64,000 nt of DNA from the NCBI GenBank assembly GCA_038065695.1, contig JBBTQN010000016.1, positions 11,738 to 75,737 of the forward strand, read 5' to 3'. Below, piece by piece: positions 1,797 through 62,811 of the stretch (position 1 is the first letter of the stretch; every line of letters begins with the position of its first letter). This DNA comes from Patescibacteria group bacterium (lineage in GTDB: Bacteria; Patescibacteriota; Patescibacteriia; 2-01-FULL-39-33). The translations under genes were made by a program, and so were the position numbers. Under the pieces are notes generated by a model. The model made no database searches. It saw only the letters and a program-made list of their open reading frames with translations, and was not told where the DNA came from.

Positions 1797-1800
1797 ATCG

Positions 1801-1845
1801 TCGTCCCCCTCCCCTTACGAAGGGGAGGGTTGGGGAGGGGTTTAG
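1801..1845. repeat. GGGGAGG-family palindromic element (half unit): ccctccccttacgaaggggagggttggggagggg, directly upstream of uvrA start
   Basis: Hairpin CCTCCCCTT-N-AAGGGGAGG followed by TTGGGGAGGGG. The same architecture recurs at 24113-24226, 44515-44612 and 54511-54565. Confidence 0.8.
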
Positions 1846-10939: not shown

Positions 10940-12772
10940 GTGAGTTTATTTTCATCTTGGGGAAAAAAGCTTTTTAGCGGCCTTTCCCAAACAAACAGAA
11001 AACTTAAACAGTTTGAAAGGCAACACCAGTTGGACAAACACCTGGTGCGTTCTTTAAATAAATCCAAATTCCTCTCTTTGAAGCAAATCAAATATTTTAC
11101 TCGCGTTCTTGACCGCCGAGAAAGCCGAAAAGTAAAATTGATTTCCGCCGTTGCCGCGATTGCCATCATCTCTCTTTTGGTAAAAATTTATTTTCTGACG
11201 ACCGTCGCCTTGCCGGCCTACGGCGGCGAGTATTCCGAAGGACTGATCGGCTCACCCCAATTCATCAACCCGATTTTAGCCCAAAGCAACGATGTGGATC
11301 TGGACATCTCCAGCTTGGTTTTCAGCGGGCTGATGCGGCAAGATAAAAACCGCCAGTTGACGCCGGACTTAGCCGACAGTTATGAAGTTTCCGACGACCA
11401 ATTGACTTATACCTTTCATCTGAAAAAAAACGTTAAATGGCACGACGGCGAACCGTTTAAAGCCGATGATGTAATTTTCACCGTCGCTTCCATCCAGGAC
11501 CCCGAATTTAAAAGTCCTTTGTCGCGAAGTTTCCGCGGCGTGGTCGCGGAAAAAATCGACGACTTCACGGTTAAATTCACTCTAAAAGAACCGTTCGCGC
11601 CTTTTTTAGGGCTTTTGACCTTTGGTATTTTGCCCGAACATTTATGGTATAATATCCCGGCCGCCAACGCCGATCTGACCGAGCTCAATAAACGGCCGAT
11701 TGGCACCGGCTCTTGGCAGTTTGAAAATCTAAAAAAAGACAAAGACGGCAATATCCGTTCCTATGCTTTAGTAAAAAATAAAGATTTTTACGGCGAGAAG
11801 CCGTATCTTAATGGAATTACTTTTAAATTTTTTGGCGATTTTCCGTCACTAGTGGAAGCAATAAAGAACAAGGATGTTTACGGCCTTTCTTATCTGCCGC
11901 GCGAATATCGCGAACAACTCAAAAAATACAAAAACATCAATTTTAATAATCTGAACCAACCCCAATACACGGCCATCTTTTTCAACCAGACCAAAAACGA
12001 CCTGCTTAAAGCCGACTATATCAGGCAGGCGCTCGCTCTCTCGGTTGACAAGCAAAAAATTCTTGACGACGTTTTCAAGTCGACCGGCAGAATTATCGAT
12101 TCTCCGACATTGCCGGGCATTGAAGATAATCCGGATATTAAAAAATATTCCTATGACCCGCAAGCGGCCAGCGCGCTCTTGGAAAAAAATGGCTGGGCAA
12201 TAATGAGCACCACGACCGAAGAAAGAGTCACTAAAAATATCAGACAAAAGAAAAATTTTCTTCTTACGATTACCTTGACGACCGTGGACCAACCGGAATA
12301 TGTCAAAACCGCCGAGCTGATCAAAAGCTTTTGGGAACAAATCGGCGTGGAGACAAAATTGAACATCGTTGACAAAGAAAAAATTCTGCCAGAAACAATC
12401 AAGCCGAGAGAATACGAGATTTTGATTTTTGGCGAAAATCTGGGCTCCGATCCGGACCCGTTCGCTTTCTGGCATTCGTCCCAAAACGAATATCCCGGTT
12501 TGAATCTGGCGATTTTTTCCGACAAAAAAGTGGATAAACTCTTGGAAGACGCGAGAAAAACCAACAATTGGGAAACTCGGAAAAAAAATTATCTGGAATT
12601 CCAAAAAATCGTCGCTGCCGAACTGCCGGCGATTTTCCTTTATAACCCGACTTACACTTACCCTCAAAACAAAGCCATCGGTGGCTTTGATTTGATCAGC
12701 ATCTCAGCGCCCGCTGACCGATTCGCCAATATAAACGAATGGTACATTAAAACAAAACGGGCGTGGAAATAA
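10940..12772 (+). CDS. ABC transporter substrate-binding protein, family 5 (Opp/Dpp-like), membrane-anchored
   Basis: An N-terminal anchor is followed by an SBP_bac_5-like region (YEVSDDQLTYTFHLKKNVKWHDGEPFKADDVIFT). Confidence 0.7.
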   Translation: MSLFSSWGKKLFSGLSQTNRKLKQFERQHQLDKHLVRSLNKSKFLSLKQIKYFTRVLDRRESRKVKLISAVAAIAIISLLVKIYFLTTVALPAYGGEYSEGLIGSPQFINPILAQSNDVDLDISSLVFSGLMRQDKNRQLTPDLADSYEVSDDQLTYTFHLKKNVKWHDGEPFKADDVIFTVASIQDPEFKSPLSRSFRGVVAEKIDDFTVKFTLKEPFAPFLGLLTFGILPEHLWYNIPAANADLTELNKRPIGTGSWQFENLKKDKDGNIRSYALVKNKDFYGEKPYLNGITFKFFGDFPSLVEAIKNKDVYGLSYLPREYREQLKKYKNINFNNLNQPQYTAIFFNQTKNDLLKADYIRQALALSVDKQKILDDVFKSTGRIIDSPTLPGIEDNPDIKKYSYDPQAASALLEKNGWAIMSTTTEERVTKNIRQKKNFLLTITLTTVDQPEYVKTAELIKSFWEQIGVETKLNIVDKEKILPETIKPREYEILIFGENLGSDPDPFAFWHSSQNEYPGLNLAIFSDKKVDKLLEDARKTNNWETRKKNYLEFQKIVAAELPAIFLYNPTYTYPQNKAIGGFDLISISAPADRFANINEWYIKTKRAWK

Positions 12773-12859
12773 CGAAGTCAAAAGTCTATAAAGTCTATAA
12801 AGTCAAAAGTTTAAAAATGACTTTGGACTTTAAGGACTTTCGACTTTAAGACTTCGTTC
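12773..12859. repeat. AT-word palindromic spacer of the 'tataaagtc/gactttata' family
   Basis: The sequence is gtcaaaagtctataaagtctataaagtcaaaagtttaaaaatgactttggactttaaggactttcgactttaagac. The same word set appears at 50461-50520, 57730-57842 and 61445-61566. Confidence 0.75.
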
Positions 12860-24112: not shown

Positions 24113-24226
24113 CTTCCCCCTCCTTGTCTTAAGGAGGGGGTTGGGGGAGGTCTTAAAATAAATTTTATTTAAGACCCCTCCGTCCCGCTTGGCGGGACAC
24201 CTCCCCTTGAAACAAGGGGAGGATTT
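24113..24226. repeat. GGGGAGG-family composite palindromic element (three hairpins)
   Basis: The sequence is ccccctccttgtcttaaggaggggg-ttgggggagg-tcttaaaataaattttatttaagacc-cctccgtcccgcttggcgggac-cctccccttgaaacaaggggagg. Confidence 0.8.
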
Positions 24227-24540: not shown

Positions 24541-24592
24541 ATGACGGAATTTCTAATTTCTAATTTCTAATTTCTAAATAATTTTCAATGAT

Positions 24593-25438
24593 TTAATTAT
24601 TGAATTTGAAAGTGGATAAAATTTGTTTTAAAATTTCTCCTTCATCACCAACAACCTTTAAACCAATAATATTTCCATCGTGCTTCAATAAATATATAGT
24701 TTCCAAATTCATGTCCGCGCTCCAAGCTTTAATAAAATCATTGTTGCCAATTGTAATCTTTTGATAGGATGAATTTTCAGAATTGATTGTCTTTTTTGCT
24801 TCTTCCAAAGTTTTTCCGGGCCACGCAAATTCGCGAATAACATACTGGTCTATAGTATCTGATGTTTTTACGGAAATAATATTAATGATGCCAACCCACT
24901 TACACGTATCACAACCTTTTTTATCCTTATTAGCATATGCTTCTGACGTGTAGAGAGAGTTATTAAAAACTATATATCCCTTCGGATATTTAAACTCAAA
25001 TCCATACTGACTATTGGAATAAGTAGACCAGCCGGCGGTTGGGTCGGTAGCACCCGTATCTTTAACAAAAGTGATTCTGACCACCTTCACAACGCCATCA
25101 GCCAGATTGCCTTCCACGAGCACGCGGTCGCCGTCTTTAAATTCGGCAACATTACAGGGAGTGAAACCTTGGGCGTTATTGTCGCATTGGCTATAATCGC
25201 CAAATGAAAGCGTGGCCGATACGGCCGGCTTGCCCGGTTCTTCATAGAGAAAAGTTTTATTCGCCCAATTGGAAATATTACCGGTCTTGGTAAAGTTGAC
25301 GGCCGGAGCTGATTCTTGATTGGTATTGGCGTTTTGGTTTTCGTTTGACGGCTGGTTTTGATTGCCGGTCGGAATAAGCGAACAGCCGGCCAAAACAAAA
25401 GCCGCGACAACTGCCAAAGCAAGGAGAGATTTTTTCAT
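24593..25438 (-). CDS. putative lipoprotein
   Basis: Has a signal peptide with a LAGC lipobox, an N/Q-rich linker, and several Cys. Confidence 0.5.
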   Translation of the reverse strand: MKKSLLALAVVAAFVLAGCSLIPTGNQNQPSNENQNANTNQESAPAVNFTKTGNISNWANKTFLYEEPGKPAVSATLSFGDYSQCDNNAQGFTPCNVAEFKDGDRVLVEGNLADGVVKVVRITFVKDTGATDPTAGWSTYSNSQYGFEFKYPKGYIVFNNSLYTSEAYANKDKKGCDTCKWVGIINIISVKTSDTIDQYVIREFAWPGKTLEEAKKTINSENSSYQKITIGNNDFIKAWSADMNLETIYLLKHDGNIIGLKVVGDEGEILKQILSTFKFNN

Positions 25439-30738: not shown

Positions 30739-30919
30739 AAATATAATTTTAGTTTTTAATTTTTAAATAAATTCTAATTTTTAATGTTTAAAAATTAAAA
30801 CATTAAAAATTATTTAAAAATTAAAAATTGGAAATTAAAAATTTACAAGACACTTTTATTTTACTTTATTCTTCTTAAAAAAGAAAGCCCCTATTTAGGG
30901 GCTTCAACTGATTACCGAG
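30739..30919. repeat. AT-word palindromic spacer ('ttaaaaatt' words)
   Basis: The palindrome is taatttttaatgtttaaaaattaaaacattaaaaatta. Confidence 0.6.
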
Positions 30920-33580: not shown

Positions 33581-34120
33581 TTATTTAGCCGCCGCCTTGC
33601 CGGCTTTGCGCCTTAAAACTTCATCCGCGTATTTAATTCCTTTACCTTTGTAGGGCTCGGGTTTTTTAATTCTTTTTATTTGAGCGGCCGTTTCGCCGAC
33701 CAATTGCTTGTCAATCCCGCTGATGGCGATAATATTGCCTTCCATTTTTATTTCAATCCCGTCAGGAATCGCGTATTCCACCGGATGAGAAAAACCGACA
33801 TTTAAAATTAACTTTTTACCTGACACGGCCGCCTTAAAACCAATGCCGTTTATTTCCAATTTTTCAGAAAAGCCTTCGGTCACGCCTAAAACCATATTTT
33901 TAATCAAACTGCCGAAAAGCCCCCATAAAGCGCGTTGCGACTTTTCGGTTTCGTCTTCAACTTTAATATTAAAGATGCCGTCATTTATCGCCACTTTGAC
34001 TTGGGGATGAATTTCCTGGCGCAATTCGCCTTTCGGACCCTTAACCACGACAAAATTAGCTTCTATTTTAGCTTCTACTCCCGCGGGGATCTTGATCAAT
34101 TGTTTACCGATTCTACTCAT
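33581..34120 (-). CDS. rplF: 50S ribosomal protein L6
   Basis: Reads MSRIGKQLIKIPAGVE...FSHPVEY. Confidence 0.9.
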   Translation of the reverse strand: MSRIGKQLIKIPAGVEAKIEANFVVVKGPKGELRQEIHPQVKVAINDGIFNIKVEDETEKSQRALWGLFGSLIKNMVLGVTEGFSEKLEINGIGFKAAVSGKKLILNVGFSHPVEYAIPDGIEIKMEGNIIAISGIDKQLVGETAAQIKRIKKPEPYKGKGIKYADEVLRRKAGKAAAK

Positions 34121-34163
34121 ATTTTAAAAATATAAAAATATAAAAACTTAAAAATAAATTTTA

Positions 34164-34562
34164 TTAATAGATTTCACAGATTACCTCGCCGCCCAATCCT
34201 GTTTTTTTCGCCTCTTTGCCGGTCATCAGTCCTTGCGAAGTCGAGACGATCGCTAAGCCGTAATTATTTAAGACTTTGGGCAAATTATCTTTGCTGGCGT
34301 AAACCCGCCGGCCCGGTTTGGAAATCTTCTTGATCGAAGAAATAGCCGGCTCATTGTCTTTATACTTAAGCTGGATATTAAAACCGCCGAATTTCTTGTC
34401 TGGACTATAATCCATCTCTTCAAAACCATTAATAAAGCCTTCCTTCTTTAAAATCTTAATAATTTCCAGTTTCATCTTGGAAAAAGGAACATAAACCTCT
34501 TCTTTTTTCACTCTTGAGGCATTTCTGATTCTGGTTAGCATGTCAGCGATTGGATCAGTCAT
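34164..34562 (-). CDS. rpsH: 30S ribosomal protein S8
   Basis: Reads [15 protein letters not shown]...TSQGLMT. Confidence 0.9.
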
Positions 34563-34676
34563 AATATTAAAAACTTAAAAATATAAAAACTTAAAAATAA
34601 ATTTTTATCTGGATTATTATTTACATTTAATATTCTCTTCATATTTTTATATTCTTGTATTTTTATATTTTTATTG
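34563..34676. repeat. AT-word palindromic spacer ('tataaaaat' words) between rpsH and S14
   Basis: The sequence is ataatattaaaaacttaaaaatataaaaacttaaaaataaattttt...tttttatattcttgtatttttatattttta. Confidence 0.6.
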
Positions 34677-34862
34677 TTACCATGAAGATTTGCCAATACC
34701 TGGGATTTGACCGCTGGTGGCCAGCTCCCGGAAACAAATGCGGCACAACTTAAACTTTCTCATATAACCATGCCGACGACCGCAACGCCAGCATCGGTTA
34801 ACCGATCGGGTAGAATATTTTTGTTTCTTTTTTGATCTCGCGATTTGCGCTTCGGTTGCCAT
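34677..34862 (-). CDS. rpsZ: 30S ribosomal protein S14 type Z
   Basis: Reads [24 protein letters not shown]. Confidence 0.9.
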
Positions 34863-34968
34863 AATTTTAAAAATATAAAAATATAAAACTATAAAAATAT
34901 AAATTTTGGAACTGATTATTTTTTAGATCTAACATATTTTATTCTTGTATTATTGTGTTCTTGTATTT

Positions 34969-35514
34969 TTATGATTTTTGAAAAGGAAAACCAAGTAATT
35001 TAAACAATTCAAGTCCTCTTTCACGACTTTGGGCATTGGTGGTGATGGAAATCTCCAAACCGTGGATCCGTTCCACCTCGTCAGAACGAATTTCCGGAAA
35101 AACATTATGTTCTTTAAGCCCGATATTCAGATTGCCTTGAGAGTCAACATTTTTTTCCGGCAGACCTCGAAAATCGCGGATTCTCGGCAAGGAGACATTA
35201 ATCAGTTTGTCTAAAAAGTCATACATCCGTTTTCCCCTTATGGTCACCTTGACGCCCACGACCATATTTTCGCGCACTTTAAAAGCTGATATTGCCTGAC
35301 GCGCCTTAGCGCGCACCGGCTTCTGACCGGTAATACGCATTAAATTGTTTTCCACGTTTTCCAAGAGAGCATTGTCGGTGCTTCTGGAATTAATGCCCAC
35401 ATTGACGCTTACTTTCTCGATTTTCGGCGCGGCCATTTTATTTTTCAAGCCAAAACTAGCCACCAATTTCGGCGCCACTTCTTCCTGATATTTCTTGTAT
35501 AATTTAGATTTCAT
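34969..35514 (-). CDS. rplE: 50S ribosomal protein L5
   Basis: Reads APKIEKVSVNVGIN...GLEISITT. Confidence 0.9.
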   Translation of the reverse strand: MKSKLYKKYQEEVAPKLVASFGLKNKMAAPKIEKVSVNVGINSRSTDNALLENVENNLMRITGQKPVRAKARQAISAFKVRENMVVGVKVTIRGKRMYDFLDKLINVSLPRIRDFRGLPEKNVDSQGNLNIGLKEHNVFPEIRSDEVERIHGLEISITTNAQSRERGLELFKLLGFPFQKS

Positions 35515-35560
35515 ATCTTAATTATTCGTATATTCGTAATTATTCGCGATTCGTAGAGTA

Positions 35561-35881
35561 TTAAATTTCTTCTTTGCATTTTTTACAAACGCGCACTTTT
35601 ACTTTTTCGCCTGATTCCAATTTATTAATTTTGTAGCCGACTCTCGCGTCTCGGCCGCATTTCGGACAAATCAAAGAAACTTGCGAAATTCTGACCGCCC
35701 GAGGGAACTGAATCCTCTGCCCTTTTTCTCCCTGTCTTTTCCCTTTTTGGTGCTTAATAATCAAATTCAAACCTTCAATCATTAATCGGCCCTCACCGGC
35801 AAAAACCTGCAAAACCTTGCCGGCCTTGCCTTTATCCTTGCCCGAGAGCATTTTCACTTTGTCTCCTTTCTTAATCTTCAT
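35561..35881 (-). CDS. rplX: 50S ribosomal protein L24 with C-terminal CxxC...CxxC zinc-ribbon extension
   Basis: Reads [22 protein letters not shown]...CPKCG...CKKC. Confidence 0.85.
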   Translation of the reverse strand: MKIKKGDKVKMLSGKDKGKAGKVLQVFAGEGRLMIEGLNLIIKHQKGKRQGEKGQRIQFPRAVRISQVSLICPKCGRDARVGYKINKLESGEKVKVRVCKKCKEEI

Positions 35882-35986: not shown

Positions 35987-36358
35987 CTACAACACCTCTG
36001 AAGCCAGAGAAATAATTTTCTGATACCCCAAATTCCTCAACTCCCTCGGTACCGGGCCGAAAACACGAGTCCCCTTCATCTCTTTTTCCTTCAAGTCAAT
36101 AATAACGGCCGCATTTTCATCAAAGCGGATATAAGAGCCATCCGAGCGGCGAACTTCCTTTTTGGTGCGGACCAAAACGGCATGGACCACATCGCCCTTT
36201 TTAACCAGGCTGTGAGGCACGGCTTCTTTTACGGAGGCAGTGACAATGTCGCCGATTCTGGCATATCTCTTTTGATAGCCGCCCAAAACTTTAATCACCT
36301 GGAGCTTTCTGGCTCCGGTATTGTCCGCGGATTTTAGCATTGACCTTGGTTGAACCAT
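35987..36358 (-). CDS. rplN: 50S ribosomal protein L14
   Basis: Reads [24 protein letters not shown]. Confidence 0.9.
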
Positions 36359-36408
36359 ATTATTTTAAAAATATAAAAATATAAAAATATTCTTGTATTC
36401 TTGTATTT

Positions 36409-36663
36409 TTATATTCTTGTATTCTTGTAAACCACCCGCCACCTTTTATCCTTACTCATCGGCCGGCATTCGATAAACTCAATCACATCCCCGATCTTGT
36501 ATTGATTCTTGGGATCGTGGACTTTATACTTTTTGCTTACTTTATATCTCTTGTGGTATCTGGGGTGCATTTTAAAACGGTCAATTTTAACCACGACGGT
36601 CTTTTCCATTTTATCGGAAACCACTTCGCCTTTGAATTTTTTTAATATTTTATTTTCCTTCAT
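36409..36663 (-). CDS. rpsQ: 30S ribosomal protein S17
   Basis: Reads [27 protein letters not shown]. Confidence 0.9.
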
Positions 36664-37294: not shown

Positions 37295-37984
37295 TTATTT
37301 TTTCTCTTTCGTATTATCAATTTCTTTACGATTGAAGACTTCGCCGCGGTAAATCCAAACTTTCACTCCGATTTTGCCGTAAATCGTCTGAGCCGCGCCG
37401 CGGCAGTAATCAATATCCGCCCTTAAAGTATGAAGGGGAATCTTGCCGGAAAAAAGCGTTTCTTCCCGGGCGATTTCCGCGCCGTTCAGCCGGCCGGCAA
37501 CGGTGATTTTGACGCCCTTGGCTCCCGCTTTTTCCACCCGGGCAATCGCCTGCTTGACCGCGCGCCTAAACGGAATGCGTTTTTCCAAATCAGCAATTAC
37601 TCCGTACATCACAATCGGCGCGTCAAGTCCCGGCTTATCCACTTCAAAAACATTAACCGTGATATTCTTAATGCCTTTCTGGCGGCTAAAAGCGTCTTTA
37701 AAAAATTTGTTGTGGATCTCTTTTTTCAGTTCCTCGGCGCCCTGCCCGCCGTGGCCGATGATAACGCCCGGCTTGCCAGCGTAGATATTGATGCTGACCG
37801 AATTGGCCGAACGCTCAATTTCCACCTTGGAGATTCCAGCCAGTTTTAATTTTTCCCTAATAAATCGGCGCGCCGAAACATCCTGTCTTAACAATTCAGG
37901 AAACTCTTGGTCGGCAAACCATTTGGAACTCCAAGTTTTATTGATTTTTAGCCGAAAAACTTTCGGATGAACTTTCTGACCCAT
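37295..37984 (-). CDS. rpsC: 30S ribosomal protein S3
   Basis: Reads MGQKVHPKVFRL, a KH domain and GAEIAR. The start is set at the Met at 37984. Confidence 0.9.
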   Translation of the reverse strand: MGQKVHPKVFRLKINKTWSSKWFADQEFPELLRQDVSARRFIREKLKLAGISKVEIERSANSVSINIYAGKPGVIIGHGGQGAEELKKEIHNKFFKDAFSRQKGIKNITVNVFEVDKPGLDAPIVMYGVIADLEKRIPFRRAVKQAIARVEKAGAKGVKITVAGRLNGAEIAREETLFSGKIPLHTLRADIDYCRGAAQTIYGKIGVKVWIYRGEVFNRKEIDNTKEKK

Positions 37985-38066
37985 AATTATAAAAATATAA
38001 AAATACAAGAATATAAAAATATTTTATTTTGAATTGTTTTTTGTTTTGTTGATTTTTTAATAACTA

Positions 38067-41878: not shown

Positions 41879-42260
41879 ATTTTATATGATACCAATATAC
41901 GAATGTTTACCAATGATACGAATGTTGCTTTGGGAATAACTTAGAATGATTAGTAGCATTGGTATGATTCGTATATTAGTATCATATTTTATTTGTATAA
42001 AAAAACCTGGCCACATACCTTAAGCCAGATTCAACTTGTCGCGCCAAAAAGCACTACTTGTTAAATTCTATATCTTAATTTAGTATGTCGGTTTTCCCTT
42101 TTTAATCGATGTCGATTATGGAGGTTTTCCCCTTTTTGCTTCTATAATTACGCGGGAACTTTCTCCATTTTCTTCATTGATTATAATTCTCTACGAATTA
42201 CGAATTTTTACGAATTTACGAATATTTGTATATTCGTACCGATTCGTAATTCGTAGAAGG
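41879..42260. other. 382-bp structured spacer between rpsJ and rplC (word palindromes; terminator-like hairpin ctggcttaaggtatgtggccag + T-run on minus strand at ~42002-42040)
   Basis: Direct reading. There are no convincing ORFs, and the region contains direct repeats of ggttttccc(c)ttttt. Confidence 0.5.
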
Positions 42261-43869: not shown

Positions 43870-44060
43870 TTTTTTAAACCTTTGGTTGAGGCCCCCGCCA
43901 AAGGCGGGTTTTATCCAGACCTCACTCTTTATTTATAAAAACACAAGAATATAAGAAAAAATATAAAAACACAGAAACCCAAATATTTTTATGTTTTTGT
44001 GTTTTATATCTTTATAATTATAGCATATTTTAAATATTTAGCAAGAGCAGTTATCCCTAA

Positions 44061-44514: not shown

Positions 44515-44612
44515 TTCCCCTCCTTTCTAAGGAGGGGTTAGGGGAGGTTATGAAAGTCACGAAAATTGGCGTGAGTTTCAAAACCCCTCCTAACCTCCCC
44601 TTTGAAAGGGGA
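44515..44612. repeat. GGGGAGG-family composite palindromic element (hairpin-arm-hairpin-arm-hairpin)
   Basis: The sequence is cccctcctttctaaggagggg-ttaggggagg-ttatgaaagtcacgaaaattggcgtgagtttcaaaa-cccctcctaa-cctcccctttgaaaggggagg. Confidence 0.85.
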
Positions 44613-44720
44613 GGAATTTAACGAATATTCGTAAATTCGTAAAAATTCGTAATTCGTAGTTATTTTTATCTAAATTTAGCTAATTTTTATAAATAAAATA
44701 TTAATAATTTCTCTACGGGG

Positions 44721-48556: not shown

Positions 48557-48639
48557 AAGAATCTAATTTTTAATTTTGTAATTTTTAATTTTTAAATAAT
48601 ACTCTAATTTTTAATTTTTAATTTCAAAAAAATAAAAAA

Positions 48640-49107
48640 TTAACTTGAAAAATGCGCGAAGGCCCGGTTGGCCTCCGCCATCCGATAGACATCCTGTTTC
48701 TTCTTGATGGCCGCGCCTTCATTGTTGAAAGCGTTGATGATTTCTTCCGCCAATTTTTCCGCCATCTTTTTGCCTTTCTTCGCTTTAGCCGCGTCAATCA
48801 GCCAGCGGCAACCGAGATTGAAGCTTCTTTTGGAACGCACGGAAACCGGCACTTGATAATTGGCGCCGCCGACGCGTTTGCTTCTGATTTCTACTGTTGG
48901 TGAAACATTTTTTATCGCTTGCTCAAAGACCGAAATGGCGTCCTGCTTGGTTTTGTTGGAAATAATATCCATCGCGTCGTAAACGATTTCCTGGGCGACC
49001 GATTTCTTGCCGCGTTCCATGATGTAATTAATAAACTTCGCGATATCCTCGCGATTGAATTTTAGATCTGGTTCAATGGCTCTGACTGGCGCTTTTTTTC
49101 CTCGCAT
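48640..49107 (-). CDS. rpsG: 30S ribosomal protein S7
   Basis: Reads MRGKKAPVRAIEPDLKFN...NAIKKKQDVYRMAEANRAFAH. Confidence 0.9.
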   Translation of the reverse strand: MRGKKAPVRAIEPDLKFNREDIAKFINYIMERGKKSVAQEIVYDAMDIISNKTKQDAISVFEQAIKNVSPTVEIRSKRVGGANYQVPVSVRSKRSFNLGCRWLIDAAKAKKGKKMAEKLAEEIINAFNNEGAAIKKKQDVYRMAEANRAFAHFSS

Positions 49108-49142
49108 AATTTTAAAAATATAAAAATAATAAAAATATAAAA

Positions 49143-49571
49143 TTAAGCCTTTGCCTTCTTGTCTTTCTTCACTCCGTAAATGCTTCGGCCGCGCTTCCTG
49201 CCTTCCACGCCCGCCGAATCATAGACGCCCCGGACAATATGGTATCTCACGCCCGGTAAATCTTTGACTCGGCCGCCGCGAATCAAAACAATGGAGTGTT
49301 CCTGTAAGTTGTGGCCGATGCCCGGGATATAAGCGGTCACTTCCTGGCCATTGGATAAGCGGACACGAGCAATCTTCCGAAGAGCGGAGTTCGGCTTCTT
49401 CGGCGTTGTGGTCCTCACCTGGATACACACGCCGCGTTTGAACACGTTGCCTTTTCTAATGGTCTTCCTTTGGCGATGCAAGGTGTCTAAGGTGATTTGC
49501 AAATCCGGCGTTTTGGATTTCTTTTTATTCGGTTTTCTTTTCTTCCGAAGCAGTTGGTTGATGGTAGGCAT
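49143..49571 (-). CDS. rpsL: 30S ribosomal protein S12 with ~15-aa N-terminal insertion
   Basis: Reads [13 protein letters not shown]...[30 protein letters not shown]. Confidence 0.9.
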
Positions 49572-49829
49572 AATTATAAAAAATTAAGAAATTAAAAAAA
49601 TAAAAAAATAAATTTATTTATCCAAATATTATTTGTAGATCCGTAAAGGATTTGTAGATTCGTGGGAGTTCGTGGGAGAATAAAAAGTTCCCCCGCGGGG
49701 AACCCCAAAAATTAGAATTAGGTTGTTTTTATCCTAAGTATTTTGGGGTGTAATTATTAATAATTAACTCTAAATATTCTAACTGATTCGCCGAGATAAG
49801 TCAACTAGGCAATTTTCCAATGGCTAAAA

Positions 49830-50460: not shown

Positions 50461-50700
50461 CGATGAAGTTGAAAGTTTATAAAGTCTGTAAAGTCAAAAG
50501 TCTGACGACGACTTTATTTTATATTAACATTATTGACTTATTTTGACAAATATGATAAGATTATATCCATAAACAAATATCTTGAGAATTTTTAATTTCC
50601 AATTTTTAATTTTTAAATAATTTTTAATGATTTAATTTTTAAAAATTAGAAATTAGATCATTATTTAAAAATTACAAAATTAAAAATTAAAAATTTCATT
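50461..50700. repeat. AT-word palindromic spacer ('tataaagtc' then 'ttaaaaatt' words)
   Basis: Direct reading. Confidence 0.6.
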
Positions 50701-52701: not shown

Positions 52702-53589
52702 TTATTTAATCAACTGCCACTTTACTCCATTACTCTCAAATACTATATCTCCATTCCTATCCGTCCTAAAAATCTTCACCCCCATCTCCTCCAAATAATA
52801 AATGGCGCGGAAAGAGGGCAGGCCGTATGAATTGTCAGCGCCGACTTCAATGACGGCGTATTGGGGCTGGACAACGGCCAGAAATTCTTGGCTGTTGCCG
52901 TTGGAAGAGCCGTGATGACCGACTTTCAAAAGGTCGGCTTTGACGAGCTCGGGAGAGCTGGAAGCCAGCTTTTCTTCCTGCTCAAAATCGCCCATAAAAA
53001 GCGCGGTTGAGGAAACATAAGACAAGCGGAAAACAATTGACGAATTATTAAGATTATCAAAACGCCGACCCTCAATATTCTCTAAAGGCCAGAGTATTTC
53101 TATCGTCGTGGAGGCGTCCAGCGCGATTTGTTTTTGGCCGTCCACAATTTCCACGGGGATATTTTTTTCTTTAATTAAGTTTAAAAATTCAATATAATCG
53201 CCGGCAGTGTGGCTCGCGCCGGTCATCATAACTTTTTCCACCCGATATCTTTTTAGCACTTCCACCAGGCCGGTGACATGATCGGCATGCGGATGGGTCA
53301 AGATGACGAGCTCCAAATCATTGTCGGTGAGAGGCAGATATTTGCCCAATTTTTCCAAAACCGAATTATCCGGCCCGCCGTCAACTAAAATGTCGTCGCC
53401 TTTGGCCGTCCGGATGAGCTCGCTGTCGCCTTGGCCCACGTCAAAGAAGTAAATTTTTAATTCTGGTTGCGGGTTGGAAGCGGTATCAGATAATACCTGC
53501 GGCTGGCGAGAATTATAAAAAATTAAAAAAACAAGAAAACAAGAAAATAAAATGACAATAAATATAATTTTTGTTTTTTTGTTAAACAT
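52702..53589 (-). CDS. membrane-anchored MBL-fold hydrolase (ComEC C-terminal lactamase_B-like domain as separate ORF)
   Basis: An N-terminal TM segment is followed by LILTHPHADHVTGL and KVGHHGS. Confidence 0.65.
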   Translation of the reverse strand: MFNKKTKIIFIVILFSCFLVFLIFYNSRQPQVLSDTASNPQPELKIYFFDVGQGDSELIRTAKGDDILVDGGPDNSVLEKLGKYLPLTDNDLELVILTHPHADHVTGLVEVLKRYRVEKVMMTGASHTAGDYIEFLNLIKEKNIPVEIVDGQKQIALDASTTIEILWPLENIEGRRFDNLNNSSIVFRLSYVSSTALFMGDFEQEEKLASSSPELVKADLLKVGHHGSSNGNSQEFLAVVQPQYAVIEVGADNSYGLPSFRAIYYLEEMGVKIFRTDRNGDIVFESNGVKWQLIK

Positions 53590-53607
53590 CGTTAATTTCT
53601 TAATTTC

Positions 53608-55152
53608 TTAATTTTTTAATTTCTTATTCGTATTATACACCCAAACCGCAATCACCCCGTAGAGCGCGACCACCAAAAAAATATTTAGCCACTCTATTTG
53701 GAGGCTTGAGAGTGGCACTTTTGACAAGCGATCAACCACCCAAAGAAAATAACCAGCGGCAAAATAGCTGACATAACCCAAGAGTTTTCCGAGCGGCAAA
53801 AAAACCGCGCCAACGACCGCGTTGATAAAGCCCCAAACCATTAAAAACGGAATGGTGGGCAAAATTAAAATATTGGCCAGAAAAGAAGAAAGAGAAAGCC
53901 GATGAAAATAAAAAATTATCAAAGGTAAGGTCATTATTTGGGCGGCCAAGGTCATAATAAATATTTCTTTGACTTGCCAAAATTCGGGCAGGCGGCGGAA
54001 ATATTTTTCCAAAATAGGAACGAGATAAATCAAGCCGATGACCGCCATAAAAGAAAGCTGAAAACCGACGTCAAAAATCAAAACTTTCGGGTTGAAGGCG
54101 AGCATCACGGCGGCGGCAAAAACAATCAGATTAAGCGAGTTATTCAGCCGGCCGACTTTCTGGGCATACAAGACGAGGATGCCCATAATCGCCGAGCGGA
54201 CGGCCGAAGCCGGCGCGCCGATCATGACAATATAAAAAACAATGATGGCGGCGATGGCCCAAAACGCCTTTGGCCGAGATATCCCGAGGCCAATCGCGAC
54301 GCTCATTAAAACCATGGAAATAATGGCAATATGCTGGCCGGAAATGGCGATGATATGGGTGACGCCGGTTTGGGAAAATTTATCCATCCACGCCGGCGAC
54401 AAACCGCCGCGGTTGTTAAAAAGCATCGCCTGAAGAAGGGCGTTTTGCGGCTCTCGAATGGAGAGGGAGAGGCCATTAGACAAAAATTTTTTCGCTTTTA
54501 ATACATTAATTATTAGACCCCTCCCCAACCCTCCCCTTGAGACAAGGGGAGGGGGATTTGTTTTAGAAATCTTCGCGAACGAACACACCGAATAAATATC
54601 ATATCGGGCTAAATATTTTTCATAATCAAAATCATCGAACTTTTCCGGTTTTTTTAGTTGGCAAGAAACACCGACTTCATCACCGTATTGATATTTAGGA
54701 TAAAGCGGTAAGGTCAATAAAACTTTGCCGCTAACCGGTATTTTACCCGCCAATTTTGAATTAATAGTTATTTTCTGCTTATCAATCCGTTCGTCAATAT
54801 CGGCGACAACACCGGAAAAGTTGGTTTCTCGGCCGTTATAATAGTAAATTTTCGTTTCGTCGGAAAAATCAGGCAGAGAAATTTGATAACGCCAAACGCC
54901 GAGGAAGAAACAAAAAATAAAAAATATTAAGACGCCCCACCGGGGCGTCTCTACAACGGGCAAGCCCGCCTTCGCTAAAGCTACGGCGGGCAAGGAAAAA
55001 ATCAGCCCGAGAGCTGATATTAAAATTAAACAAAAGATAATAAACGAGTTAAAAGAAAAAAAACTGGAAACACCGACGCCGACAATAAAAAATAAAAGAC
55101 AAAATAAAAATATTTTTGATTTGGAATGGGTAATTCTCTGCCAATAATTCAT
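53608..55152 (-). CDS. comEC: DNA internalization competence protein ComEC/Rec2 (DUF4131 + competence domain) carrying two in-frame palindromic-repeat insertions
   Basis: Reads GVWRYQISLPDFSDE...YDIYSVCSF (DUF4131) and HIIAISGQHIAIISMVLM (competence domain). Repeat DNA at 54511-54565 and 54927-54995 is translated in frame. Confidence 0.75.
   Translation of the reverse strand: MNYWQRITHSKSKIFLFCLLFFIVGVGVSSFFSFNSFIIFCLILISALGLIFSLPAVALAKAGLPVVETPRWGVLIFFIFCFFLGVWRYQISLPDFSDETKIYYYNGRETNFSGVVADIDERIDKQKITINSKLAGKIPVSGKVLLTLPLYPKYQYGDEVGVSCQLKKPEKFDDFDYEKYLARYDIYSVCSFAKISKTNPPPLVSRGGLGRGLIINVLKAKKFLSNGLSLSIREPQNALLQAMLFNNRGGLSPAWMDKFSQTGVTHIIAISGQHIAIISMVLMSVAIGLGISRPKAFWAIAAIIVFYIVMIGAPASAVRSAIMGILVLYAQKVGRLNNSLNLIVFAAAVMLAFNPKVLIFDVGFQLSFMAVIGLIYLVPILEKYFRRLPEFWQVKEIFIMTLAAQIMTLPLIIFYFHRLSLSSFLANILILPTIPFLMVWGFINAVVGAVFLPLGKLLGYVSYFAAGYFLWVVDRLSKVPLSSLQIEWLNIFLVVALYGVIAVWVYNTNKKLKN
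54511..54565. repeat. GGGGAGG-family palindromic element inside comEC ORF (encodes [15 protein letters not shown])
   Basis: The sequence is cccctccccaaccctccccttgagacaaggggagggggatttg. Confidence 0.85.
54927..54995. repeat. gtagagacgc-family hairpins inside comEC ORF (encode LPAVALAKAGLPVVETPRWGV)
   Basis: The sequence is ttaagacgccccaccggggcgtctctac followed by cccgccttcgctaaagctacggcggg. Confidence 0.8.
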
Positions 55153-57729: not shown

Positions 57730-57842
57730 ATAAAAATTTATTTATTAATAAATTTTAATTTATAAAGTCCATAAAGTCGAAAGTCTATAAAGTCGTCTGA
57801 TTAATGACTTTAAGAACTTTATGAACTTTTAACTTTATAGAC
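57730..57842. repeat. AT-word palindromic spacer ('tataaagtc' family) separating nrdD body from its glycyl-radical tail
   Basis: The sequence is ttttaatttataaagtccataaagtcgaaagtctataaagtcgtctgattaatgactttaagaactttatgaacttttaactttatagactt. Confidence 0.75.
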
Positions 57843-59888
57843 TTAAAGCGGCAATTTATCCTCTTGCTGTCTGACAAAACCGATCTCCTCGTCACAAACT
57901 GGACAATAGCGATGTTCGCCATTAAGGTAGCCGTGCTTAGGACAGACCGAAAAAGTCGGCGTCAAGGTGTAGTAGGGCAAACGAAAATTCTCCGCGATTT
58001 TTCTGACCAATTTTTTGGTGCTTTCAATATCAGACAACCGCTCTCCTAAAAAGCCGTGGATGACCGTGCCGCCGGTGTACTTAATTTGCAAATCATCCTG
58101 CTGTTCCAACACTTCAAAGATATCATGGGAAAAATTGACCGGCAAATGAGTGGAATTGGTGTAATAAGGCGCCGCGCCCTTTTCCCGGTAGGCCTCTTCG
58201 TTGGCCACGATAATGTCAGGATAAAGCTCTTTGTCCTTTTTGGCAAATCGGTAGGTCGTGCCTTCCGCCGGCGTCGCTTCCAGATTGTAAAGCTGGTTAT
58301 CTTCTTCTTGATAGCGCGCCAGCCGTTCCAGCATAAAATCAATCACTTTAAGCGCGAATTCCTTGCCTTCGGGCGTGGAAAGCGGCCGATTCATAAAATT
58401 CAAAACCGCTTCATTCATCCCGTTGATGCCAATCGTGTTGAAATGATTGCGCCAGTATTCGCCAAATCGCTCTTTGATGTCGCCAAGATAAAAACGGCTA
58501 TAAGGATAAAGCCCGCTTTCGGTAAAATTTTCCAAAATTTTTCGCTTTAATTCCAAGCTTTGGCGGGATAAATCCATCACTTGACCGAGGCGACTGAAAA
58601 AACCGTCTTGGGTTTTGGCGAGATAGCCGATGCGAGGCAAATTGATGGTGACGACGCCGATGGAGCCGGTCAGCGGATTAGCGGCAAAAATCCCGCCGCC
58701 GCGCTTCCGAAGCTCCCGATTATCCAGCCTCAATCTGCAACACATTGACCTCGCGTCCTCCACTTTCATATCACTGTTGATAAAATTGGCGAAATAAGGA
58801 ATCCCGTATTTAGCGGTCATCTCCCAAATCGGGCTAAGCACTTCATTATCCCAATTGAAATCGCGCGAAATATTATAAGTCGGAATGGGAAAAGTGAATA
58901 CCCGCCCCTTGGCGTCGCCTTCAAACATCACTTCGGCAAACGCCTTATTGATCAAATCCATCTCCGGCTGGAATTCTTTGTAAGTTTCGGTTTGCGGCGC
59001 GCCGCCGATAATAACCGCTTCGTCGGCTAAGGTGGAAGGACACAATAAATCAAAAGTTAAATTACTAAAAGGCGTTTGAAATCCGACTCTGGTCGGCACA
59101 TTCATATTAAACACGAATTCCTGAAGCGCTTGTTTGACCTGTTTGTACTCTAAACCGTCATGGCGGACAAAAGGCGCGAGTAAGGTGTCAAAATTGGCCA
59201 AAGCGACCGCGCCGGCCGCCTCGCCTTGTAAAGTATAAAGAAAATTCACCGCGTGGCCTAAAGCGACGCGGAAATGCTTGGCGGGCTTGCTCTGGACCTT
59301 GCCGTTCACCCCGCCAAAACCGACTCTTAAAATCGCCTGCAAATCCCAACCGCAGCAATAAACCGCGAGAAGTTGGAGGTCATGGAGATGAATGGCGGCG
59401 CTTACATGCGCTTCTCTGATTTCTGGCGGATAGATCTTATTGAGCCAATAATGCGAGCTGACCGAGGAAGCGACGTGATTATTGAGCCCTTGGAGCGAAT
59501 AAGCCATATTGGCGTTTTCCTTGACCCGCCAATCCAATTGCTTCAAATAGCCGTCAATAACATCATTGGAATTAATCAGTTCTTTCAGTTCCCGAAGCCG
59601 AGCGTGCTGTTCGCGGTAAATAATGTAAGATTTGGCCGCTTTAACCAAATCGGCGTCAATTAAAATCTCCTCCACGATATCCTGAATTTCTTCAATCGCC
59701 GGAATTGAGCGAGGATGGAATTTGCTATTGAGTAGCCGCATCACTCGTTCGGCCAATTCTTCGGCCAAAGGCAAATCTTCCCGGCCGACCGCTTTTAGGG
59801 CCTTAAAAACCGCCTGAATGATTTTGTTTTGGTCAAAATCAACAATCCGGCCGTCCCGTTTCTTTACCTGCTTGATTTGGTTTTCCAT
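57843..59888 (-). CDS. nrdD: anaerobic ribonucleoside-triphosphate reductase (class III), ATP-cone + catalytic body + zinc ribbon; lacks glycyl-radical tail
   Basis: Has an N-terminal ATP-cone (VKKRDGRIVDFDQNKI), a catalytic domain and C-terminal CPKHG...CPVC. It ends DEEIGFVRQQEDKLPL without the RVxGY motif. Confidence 0.85.
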   Translation of the reverse strand: MENQIKQVKKRDGRIVDFDQNKIIQAVFKALKAVGREDLPLAEELAERVMRLLNSKFHPRSIPAIEEIQDIVEEILIDADLVKAAKSYIIYREQHARLRELKELINSNDVIDGYLKQLDWRVKENANMAYSLQGLNNHVASSVSSHYWLNKIYPPEIREAHVSAAIHLHDLQLLAVYCCGWDLQAILRVGFGGVNGKVQSKPAKHFRVALGHAVNFLYTLQGEAAGAVALANFDTLLAPFVRHDGLEYKQVKQALQEFVFNMNVPTRVGFQTPFSNLTFDLLCPSTLADEAVIIGGAPQTETYKEFQPEMDLINKAFAEVMFEGDAKGRVFTFPIPTYNISRDFNWDNEVLSPIWEMTAKYGIPYFANFINSDMKVEDARSMCCRLRLDNRELRKRGGGIFAANPLTGSIGVVTINLPRIGYLAKTQDGFFSRLGQVMDLSRQSLELKRKILENFTESGLYPYSRFYLGDIKERFGEYWRNHFNTIGINGMNEAVLNFMNRPLSTPEGKEFALKVIDFMLERLARYQEEDNQLYNLEATPAEGTTYRFAKKDKELYPDIIVANEEAYREKGAAPYYTNSTHLPVNFSHDIFEVLEQQDDLQIKYTGGTVIHGFLGERLSDIESTKKLVRKIAENFRLPYYTLTPTFSVCPKHGYLNGEHRYCPVCDEEIGFVRQQEDKLPL

Positions 59889-60268: not shown

Positions 60269-61444
60269 TTATCTCATCTTTTTCCTGATGAAAGCCGGGA
60301 TTTCCAAATCCTCTTCTTCCACCCGCGGCCGAATCCTAGATGGCGGCGCCGGCCTTTCTTTTTCTTCCATTTTAGCCGTTTCTGTTTTTGGCGCTTTGGT
60401 TTCGGTCGGTTTTTCATCAATCACCCGGCGGGAAAACAAGCGATTCATTGAATATCTCGGCTCTTCTAAGGATGAACGGCTGGCCTTTTCTTTATCGCCG
60501 AATCCGGTGGCGACCACCGTGATTCTCACTCTGTCTTTCATCGCCTCGTCAATCGCGACGCCGAAAATGATTTTCGCGTTGGAGTCGGCGCTTTCCGTAA
60601 TCGCCTCGGCCGCTTCATGGACCTCGTCCATCGTCAAGTTTGGCCCGCCCATCACAATAAACAAGATTCCGCGCGCCCCGTCAATTGAAACATCCAAAAG
60701 CGGAGAGGAAACCGCCATTTTGGCGGCGGCCACCGCTCGGTTTTCGCCATTCGCCTCGCCAATACCCATCAAGGCCGAGCCAGAATCAAGCATAATCGCT
60801 TTGACATCGGCAAAATCAAGATTGATTAAAGAAGGCATGGTGATGAGCTCGGAAATCCCCTGCACGCCTTGACGCAAAACATCATCAACGACTTTAAATG
60901 AATCGAGAATGGAGGTCTTCTTGTCAATAATTTGAAAAATTTTATCGTTGGGAATGGTAATAATTGTGTCCACCCGATCTCGAAGTTCATGATAGCCGCG
61001 TTCAGCGATCGCCGCGCGCTGCGTGCCCTCAAAGGAAAACGGCTTGGTCACCACCGCGACCACCAAAGCGCCAAGTTCTTTGGCGACTTGCGCCACCATC
61101 GGCGACGCGCCGGTGCCGGTGCCGCCGCCCAAACCGCAAGTAACGAAAACCATATCCGCCCCTTTTAAGGCGTCACGGATGTCATTAATGCTTTCTTGCG
61201 CCGCTTGAAAACCAAGTTCCGGATCCATCCCCGCTCCCAGTCCGCGAGTGGTCATCTGGCCGATATGAAGCTTGTGCTTTGCTTCGTTGTGATGAAGCGC
61301 TTGGACATCGGTATTAATCGCCATAAATTCCACGCCTTTGATTTTTGAGGCGATCATTCGATTGATGGCGGATCCGCCGGAGCCCCCCACGCCGATCACT
61401 TTAATTTTGGCAAAAGTTTCAAGTTCCGGTTTTATTTCGGGCAT
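60269..61444 (-). CDS. ftsZ: cell division protein FtsZ
   Basis: Reads IKVIGVGGSGGSAINRM...GGGTGTGASP. Confidence 0.95.
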   Translation of the reverse strand: MPEIKPELETFAKIKVIGVGGSGGSAINRMIASKIKGVEFMAINTDVQALHHNEAKHKLHIGQMTTRGLGAGMDPELGFQAAQESINDIRDALKGADMVFVTCGLGGGTGTGASPMVAQVAKELGALVVAVVTKPFSFEGTQRAAIAERGYHELRDRVDTIITIPNDKIFQIIDKKTSILDSFKVVDDVLRQGVQGISELITMPSLINLDFADVKAIMLDSGSALMGIGEANGENRAVAAAKMAVSSPLLDVSIDGARGILFIVMGGPNLTMDEVHEAAEAITESADSNAKIIFGVAIDEAMKDRVRITVVATGFGDKEKASRSSLEEPRYSMNRLFSRRVIDEKPTETKAPKTETAKMEEKERPAPPSRIRPRVEEEDLEIPAFIRKKMR

Positions 61445-61566
61445 ATAATTTAGTTTATAAAGTTTATAAAGTTAAAAGTTTATAAAATCATCTTTTTAAT
61501 AATTATTTTTATCTAATATACTTTTGACTTTATAGACTTTATAGACTTTATAGACTTTTGACTTCG
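61445..61566. repeat. AT-word palindromic spacer ('tataaagtt ... gactttatagac' inverted)
   Basis: The pairing gtttataaagtttataaagttaaaagt ... acttttgactttatagactttatagactttatagac forms a near-perfect long palindrome. Confidence 0.75.
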
Positions 61567-62811
61567 TTAGGGTAAAAATGACTTAAACCATCTTCTCATT
61601 TGACTCGCGGCTTTGTCAACGCTCCGAAAGCGGCTTAAGATTTTCAGGCCGAAACCGCCTCGCTGCAGTTCGCTCCCCCAAATCACCAAGCCGATCGCCG
61701 TGGTAAAAGACAAATCGCTTACTTTATCCAGATTGGAAATCAATTCTTGCGGATAGCCGAGTGAAGCGGGAAGACGCAAAGTTTTTTTCGCCACTTCCGT
61801 CATCCCGTCAAGTTTCGCGCCCGAGCCGGTCAAAACCGCGCCCGCCGGCAACATTCCCGAACGGCCGATCTTCTTAAGTTCCTTGTCCACCCGTTCCATT
61901 ATTTCTTCCACTCTGGCTTCAATGATTTCCGCGACTTCTTTCTTGGAAAAATAACCGTCTTCTATTCCGCCCAAATCGGCAAATTTCATTTCATCCGTCT
62001 TCTTGAAACTTTCCGAAAGCGCGCTGCCTTCACGGAGTTTTATCTTTTCCGCCGTATCCAGTGAAATCCGCAGTCCGATGGCGATATCGTTGGTGATGTA
62101 TTCGGAGCCGATCGGCAAAACCGCCGTGTGCAGCACGTTATTTTCCTCAAAAACCGCGATGCCGGTCGTCGCGCCGCCGATATTTACCAACACCACTCCC
62201 AATTCTTTCTGGCGATTGGTCAAAACACTCTCCGCCGAAGCTAAAATGGACAAAACCTCATCATCAATATCCAAGCCGGTGCGATAAACGCATTTGGTCA
62301 AATTTTTTATCTGCGCCGCGAGGCCTTGGATGATTTGCGCTTCCACTTCCAGCCGAATGCCGGTCATGCCAATCGGATCCTTAATGCCAGTTTGCGAGTC
62401 AACGGTAAAACTTTTTGGGATGACATGAAGGATTTCATAATTCGGTGGAATCGCGACGGCTTGCGCCGCGGCGATTACCCGTTCCACATCCTCTGATCTG
62501 ATTTCGCCGTCCGCTTTGGAAACGGCGACGACTCCCTTGCTCTCACTCGCGATAATATGACTGCCATTAATTCCAACCCAAGCGTGGTCAATCGGCTGGC
62601 CGATCATCCGCTCCACTTTTTCCAAAGCGGAAGAAATCGAGGAAACCGCGTCTTCAACGCTGGTGACGATGCCTTTGCTGATTCCTTGAGCCGGCACTTC
62701 CGTCGCGCCGATGATTTTCAGCCGCTCGTCTCCTTTTTCCTTTTGGCCGACCACGACTCGGATCGCGGTTGAGCCGACATCAAGTCCGGTTATTAAATCG
62801 CTTTTAAGCAT
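61567..62811 (-). CDS. ftsA: cell division protein FtsA
   Basis: Reads LITGLDVGSTAIRVVVGQ...actin-like ATPase fold. The start is set at the Met at 62811. Confidence 0.9.
   Translation of the reverse strand: MLKSDLITGLDVGSTAIRVVVGQKEKGDERLKIIGATEVPAQGISKGIVTSVEDAVSSISSALEKVERMIGQPIDHAWVGINGSHIIASESKGVVAVSKADGEIRSEDVERVIAAAQAVAIPPNYEILHVIPKSFTVDSQTGIKDPIGMTGIRLEVEAQIIQGLAAQIKNLTKCVYRTGLDIDDEVLSILASAESVLTNRQKELGVVLVNIGGATTGIAVFEENNVLHTAVLPIGSEYITNDIAIGLRISLDTAEKIKLREGSALSESFKKTDEMKFADLGGIEDGYFSKKEVAEIIEARVEEIMERVDKELKKIGRSGMLPAGAVLTGSGAKLDGMTEVAKKTLRLPASLGYPQELISNLDKVSDLSFTTAIGLVIWGSELQRGGFGLKILSRFRSVDKAASQMRRWFKSFLP

Follow-up and report, generated by a model that had tools for sequence, protein, structure and literature searches.

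Dispersed G/C-rich units of probable intrastrand triplex design in a Patescibacteria genome

To our knowledge, the repeats named BoxC, PIT or TM elements have been known since the 1990s and have no accepted function. In Escherichia coli the family was called first BoxC, then PIT elements (Hoyne, Maher et al. 2000) and then TM_ECO, and its members are class II intrastrand triplex motifs, composed of a pyrimidine block, a purine block and a reverse-Hoogsteen block (PMC4666352). The TM_ECO consensus is CCCTCNCCC-N3-6-GGGNGAGGG-N3-GGGNGAGGG (PMC4666352). E. coli MG1655 has 23 TM copies, all intergenic and without strand or gene-class bias, among which five inverted pairs each combine a TTA-loop type with a CCG-loop type; the loci show raised variability between strains, and a single-stranded TM oligonucleotide forms a stable triplex as judged by circular dichroism (CD) and nuclear magnetic resonance (NMR) (PMC4666352). 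Very many triplex motifs rich in G/C occur in cyanobacteria, for example 443 in Microcystis (PMC4666352). Here we describe four loci, A to D, in a 64-kb window (the whole stretch of DNA that was analysed, on contig JBBTQN010000016.1) of a Patescibacteria genome (candidate phyla radiation, CPR) assembled from Hainich groundwater. These loci probably belong to a dispersed G/C-rich repeat, an intrastrand triplex motif of the class II purine-motif kind to which BoxC, PIT and TM belong.

A preliminary description of this DNA had placed a GC-rich repeat, built from a hairpin and an abutting arm, at the four loci, and had taken it for a dispersed multi-copy structured family of single units and inverted pairs that lie mostly at gene boundaries. 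That much holds. The word GGGGAGG has 12 exact matches in the window, all inside loci A to D and three in each, and shuffled windows contain 6.1 ± 2.5 matches that are scattered. No other clusters were found in the window, which is 43% G+C with AT-rich spacers, by a scan for G/A or C/T 7-mers with at least six G or C. The formal motif that we used for a unit is a pyrimidine (Y) block, a loop, a complementary purine (R) block, a second loop and a triad-compatible third block. By this motif the four loci are six units, two of them solo (A and D) and four arranged as two inverted pairs (B and C). In each pair the left unit is of subtype a (CCCCTCC / GGAGGGG + GGGGAGG) and the right unit, on the opposite strand, is of subtype b (CCTCCCC / GGGGAGG + GGAGGGG). 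The features are as follows.

1805-1842, plus strand: unit A, solo, 10 perfect triads; Y block CCCTCCCCTT at 1807-1816 (the C run starts at 1805), loop ACG, R block AAGGGGAGGG at 1820-1829, loop TTG, third (reverse-Hoogsteen) block GGGAGGGGTT at 1833-1842.
24116-24151, plus strand: unit B-left, subtype a, 9 perfect triads; Y block CCCCCTCCTT at 24116-24125, loop GTCTT, R block AAGGAGGGGG at 24131-24140, loop TT, third block GGGGGAGGT at 24143-24151.
24151-24174: central AT-only palindrome of locus B, TCTTAAAATAAATTTTATTTAAGA, a hairpin in Watson-Crick folding.
24174-24222, minus strand: unit B-right, subtype b, 8 perfect triads when loop 2 is allowed up to 22 nt; on the minus strand Y block CCTCCCCT(T), loop, R block (A)AGGGGAGG, loop 2, third block GGAGGGGT.
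44517-44549, plus strand: unit C-left, subtype a, 9 perfect triads, sequence CCCCTCCTTTCTAAGGAGGGGTTAGGGGAGGTT; Y block CCCCTCCTT at 44517-44525, loop TCT, R block AAGGAGGGG at 44529-44537, loop TTA, third block GGGGAGGTT at 44541-44549.
44550-44580: central imperfect palindrome of locus C, ATGAAAGTCACGAAAATTGGCGTGAGTTTCA.
44581-44614, minus strand: unit C-right, subtype b, 10 perfect triads; on the minus strand Y block CCTCCCCTTT, loop, R block AAAGGGGAGG, loop TTA, third block GGAGGGGTTT.
54517-54555, minus strand: unit D, solo, in frame in comEC; on the minus strand Y block CCCTCCCCT(T), loop GTCTC, R block (A)AGGGGAGGG, loop TTG, third block GGGAGGGGT.

Units A and D match exactly except in loop 1. 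Unit length is 33-38 nt, or 49 nt for B-right, where a hairpin is inserted in the second loop, and every unit has 8-10 perfect triads with no mismatches. Loop 1 is 3-7 nt long (1-7 nt depending on register) and loop 2 is 2-3 nt in five of the six units. The three-block triad finder detected no further unit in the window outside the four loci, and none in 300 block-shuffled windows, even at a stem length of 7. Locus B sits between two tandem minus-strand genes and locus C between divergent genes, so that the upstream-of-uvrA and tandem settings given in the preliminary description are right and its convergent setting is not. A fifth locus, E, a three-unit cluster with a small extra hairpin, lies between two tandem genes on the same contig (L001 365-540), approximately 0.6-0.8 kb past window position 64000. 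The window and the adjoining contig, which together cover approximately 72 kb of the source genome, contain eight perfect units, approximately one per 9 kb. The window units have no strand preference, three lying on each strand, and no gene-function preference.

For the unit finder we adopted the ITxF criteria (Holder et al. 2015, PMC4666352), which set stems of 6-15 nt, at most one mismatch and loops of 1-6 nt. It calls all six window units class II. Of six published E. coli TM sequences submitted to it, five are called likewise; the sixth, with a T in its purine block, is unreadable by the finder. In all six window units the blocks follow the order Y, R, reverse-Hoogsteen, G/C content is above 50%, stems are at least 8 nt and far above chance, and the third block, which is antiparallel to the purine block, gives no triads other than G·G-C, A·A-T and T·A-T. 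The 18-nt loop 2 of B-right lies outside the ITxF loop limit. It is itself a hairpin, GTCCCGC-TTG-GCGGGAC (plus strand 24182-24198), which folds alone and leaves the flanking triads intact. The arm that had been described as simply adjoining a hairpin is in every case the mirror of the hairpin purine strand, GGAGGGG followed by GGGGAGG or GGGGAGG followed by GGAGGGG, and this is what makes the repeat an intrastrand triplex motif rather than a hairpin with an arm and no further feature.

We examined the third-strand rules in matches to a pattern, consisting of the hairpin 3' strand and an abutting G block, that was scanned for in one genome per species and gave at least 120 loci. The number of matches is close to a rough estimate of the chance matches for the pattern; we take the matches as real because 96 of the 134 listed have a perfectly complementary 5' stem of 7 nt, which was left free in the pattern. 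Among the matches listed are Cyanobacteria, Nitrospirota, Planctomycetota, Proteobacteria, Bacteroidota, Patescibacteria and Omnitrophota, together with Poribacteria, Armatimonadota, Chloroflexota, Acidobacteriota and others. The preliminary description had proposed looking for the element elsewhere, and it is there, at the fifth locus on the contig, in many phyla and on viral contigs. Further mirror cases are GGAGGGGG followed by GGGGGAGG and all-G followed by all-G. When the stem is perfect and asymmetric, 63 arms are mirrored and 3 are direct among the matches listed (Fisher p = 9e-12), and the 3 direct arms are of the self-symmetric GGGGAGGG(G) type. The arm base opposite a stem A is A in 79 and T in 16 of the matches listed, and never G or C; this test used hairpins found independently of the arm, and the scan pattern had permitted G at that position. 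The first base after the arm core is free of any pattern constraint and faces the closing A-T pair of the hairpin (CCTT...AAGG). In 102 of the 119 units listed this base is T, compared with a background of 24% (p = 2e-46), and it is never C.

These third-strand rules, as read from the sequences, are exactly what G·G-C, A·A-T and T·A-T triads demand in a triple helix of the antiparallel purine-motif type, and they are kept in every window unit and in nearly every unit of other phyla and viral contigs, the A-T pairs closing the hairpin included. They would not be expected from a dimeric protein site on duplex DNA, from a plain hairpin or from a G-quadruplex. A Rfam search at gathering and permissive thresholds returned tRNAs alone above threshold, with matches at loci B and C far below the gathering scores, so that no Rfam model covers the family, and in the literature on Patescibacteria palindromic repeats we found nothing specific to these units.

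The settings of units A and D suggest how the units came to lie where they do. The uvrA ATG is at 1796 (minus strand), 8 nt from unit A, and a sigma-70-type promoter, TTGACA-17-TATAAT with 12 of 12 matching positions, lies upstream at 1894-1866 (minus strand), so that unit A is inside the uvrA 5' leader, where its order on the mRNA strand is third block, Y, R. The three closest UvrA relatives, one of them from the same sample, keep the N-terminus at 74-76% identity; their upstream regions have similar promoter-like sequences and short, AT-rich leaders, with no unit. A second contig from another sample (L129) stops short of the uvrA leader. Folding of the leader RNA places the purine block in a 10-bp hairpin whose end lies 8 nt ahead of the AUG, and on this model unit A may lower uvrA translation as a side effect of insertion. 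Three further observations concern this region. The sequence ATCGTCGTC abuts the 5' side of unit A (window 1796-1804) and recurs 5' of the left unit in locus E, whose right unit is followed by the inverse, GACGAC (L001 ~378-386 and ~527-535). A run of GGAGGAGGAGG on the minus strand at 1960-1970, approximately 70 nt upstream of the uvrA promoter, is not a triplex unit. A related organism from the same groundwater sample has a reverse-transcriptase (RVT_1) gene directly upstream of uvrA (L127 26-1024).

The preliminary description had also reported an in-frame copy inside comEC, which is unit D: it encodes 15 residues in the linker between the DUF4131 and Competence domains (coding sequence 53608-55152, minus strand). 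The gene order prfA-comEC-MBL-response regulator-ndk is conserved, with the exception of L124, which has an extra gene after comEC. The identical ComEC is carried by six other contigs. In L122 comEC has a perfect in-frame unit at the same linker as in the window (SLLPLTKGEVGRGLNN), in L124 a perfect in-frame unit lies in the N-terminal loop (ISPLPLRKGGLGRV), and in L123 the N-terminal loop holds a whole composite. Most other comEC homologs examined have no unit. The repeat-derived ComEC peptide segments are PPLxxxGGLGRG-like in several lineages. The comEC N-terminal loop in the window (54930-54991, minus strand) has two more in-frame GC-rich hairpins, GCCCGCC...GGCGGGC and AGACGCCCC-GGT-GGGGCGTCT, with a DNA fold z of -5.6; mixed G/C stems exclude them from the triplex units, and, being styled like the hairpin in loop 2 of B-right, they may represent a second family of small hairpin insertions.

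Judged from these comparisons, the units are insertions, since the uvrA copy is missing in the nearest relatives and the comEC sites differ between CPR lineages. The insertion pattern argues against a conserved gene-specific regulator, and the positional polymorphism between related genomes that the preliminary description had suggested seeking is present at both genes. At the scan loci listed, a reading frame that stays open for 40 codons or more on each side surrounds 39% of the units, compared with 73% of random positions; units are preferentially intergenic and coding copies are not rare, the 39% being a crude upper estimate. Viral contigs carry 131 complete units in 359 kb, many of them in close inverted pairs. 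On one viral contig (L166 8485-9409) there are five units, four of them at approximately 198-nt spacing in an array-like arrangement, and a Nitrospirales chromosome segment (L031) has 13 units in 8 kb, some of which flank inserts of several hundred bp.

Small palindromes that insert and form inverted doublets call to mind REP/REPIN elements, which are short palindromes, often inverted doublets, moved as single-stranded hairpins by RAYT, an IS200/IS605-like tyrosine transposase. The likeness to REP, BIME and REPIN elements extends to short GC-rich hairpins, inverted doublets, half-element-like solo copies, intergenic preference and proposed single-stranded DNA mobility, and the pairing of two subtypes resembles the heterodimer pairing of REP dimers (PMC3733652); the CGTCGTC flanks at unit A and locus E would also fit. 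However, REP superfamilies are defined by an unpaired GTAG/CGTC tag (PMC3733652), and within 8 nt upstream of the unit GTAG is found in 2 and CGTC in 4 of 186 units. In the window five of the six units have no tag, unit A alone having a CGTC flank. REPs have no third mirror block, and no RAYT was seen in the approximately 72 kb examined, in which the window open reading frames were only partly screened. We therefore consider a REP identity improbable.

It is equally doubtful that the units are cis-acting RNA elements, that is, hairpins that sequester Shine-Dalgarno (SD) or anti-SD sequences, or boundary elements that terminate transcription or stabilise mRNA. The uvrA leader transcript includes unit A, whose purine strand stops 8 nt short of the AUG and is paired in the 10-bp hairpin of the RNA fold, the B-right hairpin is followed by a T-rich tail on the plus strand, and a pyrimidine-motif RNA triple helix is chemically possible on C-rich transcripts (PMC4666352). 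Against this, the uvrA copy is missing in the three nearest relatives, and orientation to transcription is mixed, with C between divergent genes and D in a coding region. The preliminary description was correct that the genome is poor in SD sequences: a core GGAG, GAGG or AGGA lies within 20 nt upstream of 4 of 67 starts, compared with 10.6% for all ATGs. Because the genome is nearly SD-free, the SD/anti-SD device that it had proposed is unlikely; just one locus of the four has a start codon close by, and 28 of the 96 perfect-stem units listed, in other taxa, have all-G/all-C stems without a GGAGG word. The SD and anti-SD words are better regarded as a by-product, because the triplex design requires homopurine and homopyrimidine blocks with an occasional A. 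Conserved terminators and promoter readings of the units are not supported by the scanner results either: a terminator-like consensus is passed by a single unit of the six, which is antisense to both of its neighbours, and the PIT elements of E. coli have no promoter or terminator activity (PMC4666352). Purine-motif triplexes do not form in RNA (PMC4666352), yet the triad rule is kept. Around locus C, promoters suspected by eye were not confirmed by a promoter scanner.

The paired loci had been described as ~100-bp higher-order palindromes and as MITE/REP-like (MITE, miniature inverted-repeat transposable element), with solo copies as half-elements. Composites B and C are approximately 100 bp long with inverted ends, and presence/absence polymorphism would agree with a non-autonomous transposon that has terminal inverted repeats and whose solo copies are decayed halves. 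The halves, however, are different subtypes, and because each pair mixes a and b the facing arms GGGGAGG and CCCCTCC are not Watson-Crick complementary, so exact inverted repeats are missing from the ends. B and C have unrelated central spacers, and a three-way alignment of B, C and E has a mean column identity of 59%, the locus E spacer TCTTAGATAACAATTATTTCAAGA resembling that of locus B in the end bases that they have in common. What looks like a "100-bp element" is therefore a pair of units with an arbitrary AT-rich spacer between them and not a transposon-like sequence. No target-site duplication is visible at any of the four loci, where the flanks are AT-rich and no consistent duplications occur at the borders, and the conserved module is the 33-nt unit, which is alone in most genomes. 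With no terminal inverted repeats, target-site duplications or shared interior to define the family, a MITE is very improbable. Mixing of subtypes a and b is also found in composites of other phyla, for example L083, L119 and L056. The last alternative, a quadruplex formed by the two G blocks in competition with the hairpin, has a very slim chance of being right: A and D read GGGGAGGGTTGGGGAGGGG, with four runs of at least three G and loops of 1, 2 and 1 nt, but this canonical pattern is limited to those two of the six units, the B and C units have two such runs each, a quadruplex needs no C-rich block, mirrored A, A/T-only position or trailing T, and NMR on the E. coli motif argued against it (PMC4666352).

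If the units are intrastrand triplex motifs, a model for their behavior would be as follows. When DNA becomes single-stranded, in replication, repair, transcription bubbles or DNA uptake, the G-rich strand would fold as a hairpin and the third block would be laid in its major groove, and selection would keep this fold. The fold could be the recognition structure for an activity that copies or moves the element, or a polymerase obstacle that promotes local rearrangement, as proposed for E. coli by Holder et al. (PMC4666352), or both. The family in this genome would then be small selfish or unstable DNA and not a dedicated regulatory device, and effects on host genes, such as the stable hairpin in the uvrA leader and the 15-residue insert in the ComEC linker, would be incidental. 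The complementary C-rich strand has the pyrimidine-motif design, which could also form in RNA, such as the uvrA leader transcript, and needs cytosine protonation. That the three-stranded fold is itself selected in living cells, and is read by a single-strand-specific copying or moving enzyme or acts as a universal polymerase roadblock, we put forward more tentatively, as a possibility that on balance we doubt.

Several points weigh against the triplex interpretation and against mobility. In E. coli the TM triplex was seen only on single-stranded oligonucleotides in vitro; the duplex form gave no triplex signal, and in vivo dimethyl sulfate (DMS) footprinting showed none (PMC4666352). Watson-Crick-only folding of the composites gives a hairpin, a central stem and a second hairpin with z of approximately -8, the arms being made to pair in a helix that contains a mismatch and a bulge, and the solo units give z of -1.7 to -3.0. 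It is possible, on these folding models, that the paired copies are ordinary multi-hairpin structures, since the composites fold well by Watson-Crick pairing alone. The scan matches are not phylogenetically independent, and the counts are those of the matches listed. All borders were inspected by eye, and no target-site duplication or target motif was found, nor a transposase among the partly screened open reading frames of the window. The description of the units as mobile rests on presence and absence among fairly distant relatives (50-76% protein identity), and the analysis covered approximately 72 kb of the source genome.

If the fold is selected in vivo, these units would be among the most widespread mobile DNA structures in bacteria and could enter proteins as in-frame inserts. 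Positions of importance to a third strand alone (the mirrored A, the A or T opposite an A-T pair, and the trailing T) are kept across very distant hosts and phages, and such conservation argues for selection on the three-stranded fold. The motif is not confined to intergenic DNA or to cellular chromosomes. The findings go beyond the published description in the CPR host, the in-frame comEC copies at differing sites, the 5' leader copy, the frequency on viral contigs, the hairpin tolerated in loop 2 and the quantitative cross-phylum conservation of the third strand. Annotators of CPR and cyanobacterial genomes should treat such protein segments as repeat-derived.

The window has other repeats of different kinds. 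Tandem arrays of 8-nt period (AAAAATAT, TTCTTGTA and relatives), often inverted, fill unusually long spacers between ribosomal-protein and other genes, directly upstream of start codons, at 34108-34181, 34559-34680, 34859-34978, 36357-36434, 37981-38054, 43929-44005, 49104-49169, 49568-49633 and 53507-53640. The 8-nt arrays of ATTCGTAA type at 35515-35563, 42182-42256 and 44618-44668 are mutually inverted (48 nt, 90% complementary); one of them adjoins the right end of locus C, on the left side of which there are ACGAAT words. Intergenic TAAAGTC / AAAGTCTAT repeat arrays at 12770-12824, 50465-50515, 57748-57844 and 61443-61569 include a 48-nt pair in inverted orientation, 88% complementary and separated by 49 kb. 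Palindromic blocks of A and T only, 60-120 nt long and of TAATTTTT type, at 30753-30873, 48560-48642, 50557-50700 and 24548-24611, are inverted copies of one another (121 nt, 80% complementary).

The closest known relatives of the window units remain the BoxC/PIT/TM elements. Both have three blocks of class II in approximately 35 nt, A or T opposite A, and no strand or gene-class bias. Some window copies have a TTA loop 2 (C-left as in E. coli TM type A), inverted pairs are always of two subtypes, and loci vary between related genomes. Like TM_ECO and BoxC, the window units are dispersed, three per strand, with subtypes a and b combined in both B and C. The sequences differ, the window blocks being CC(C)CTCC(CC)TT...AAGG(G)GAGG(G) around a GGAGG core, or CCYCYCC-TT...AA-GGRGRGG, in contrast to CCCTCNCCC...GGGNGAGGG, and the host is a member of the Patescibacteria and not of the Proteobacteria. 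The E. coli copies are always intergenic and none were found on phages or plasmids, whereas here there are an in-frame comEC copy and a 5' leader copy, and related units are common on viral contigs. Membership of the TM_ECO/BoxC subfamily was considered and rejected, because the design is alike but the consensus is not matched. On sequence grounds, the window units would thus constitute a further family, in another host clade, of the BoxC/PIT/TM kind of intrastrand triplex motif.

The cyanobacterial motifs appear to include the same unit, which is borne by scan matches in Microcoleus, Nostoc, Planktothrix and others. In Nostoc (L032), Brasilonema (L087) and Kastovskya (L112) the stems, loop 2 and third block match those of units A and D, with one mismatch in the C-rich block of the Brasilonema unit. 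The published account (PMC4666352) gives counts for the cyanobacteria, without consensus, context or coding copies, and the family identity that we suggest is drawn from the scan. The Rickettsia palindromic elements (RPEs) resemble the comEC copies as palindromic in-frame inserts that are tolerated and add a peptide in a variable region, and such insertion in a coding gene is found in the comEC of the window and of L122, L123 and L124. RPEs differ in being 100-150 bp long, AT-richer and CGTC-tagged, with family-specific sequences (PMC3733652), and they have no homopurine mirror design; the window units have neither the sequence nor the length of an RPE. With H-DNA the units share a homopurine mirror repeat, composed of the R block, loop 2 and the third block, and the same base triples. 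H-DNA, however, consists of two blocks and depends on negative supercoiling of the duplex, whereas in the units a third, Watson-Crick complementary block would let one strand fold alone.

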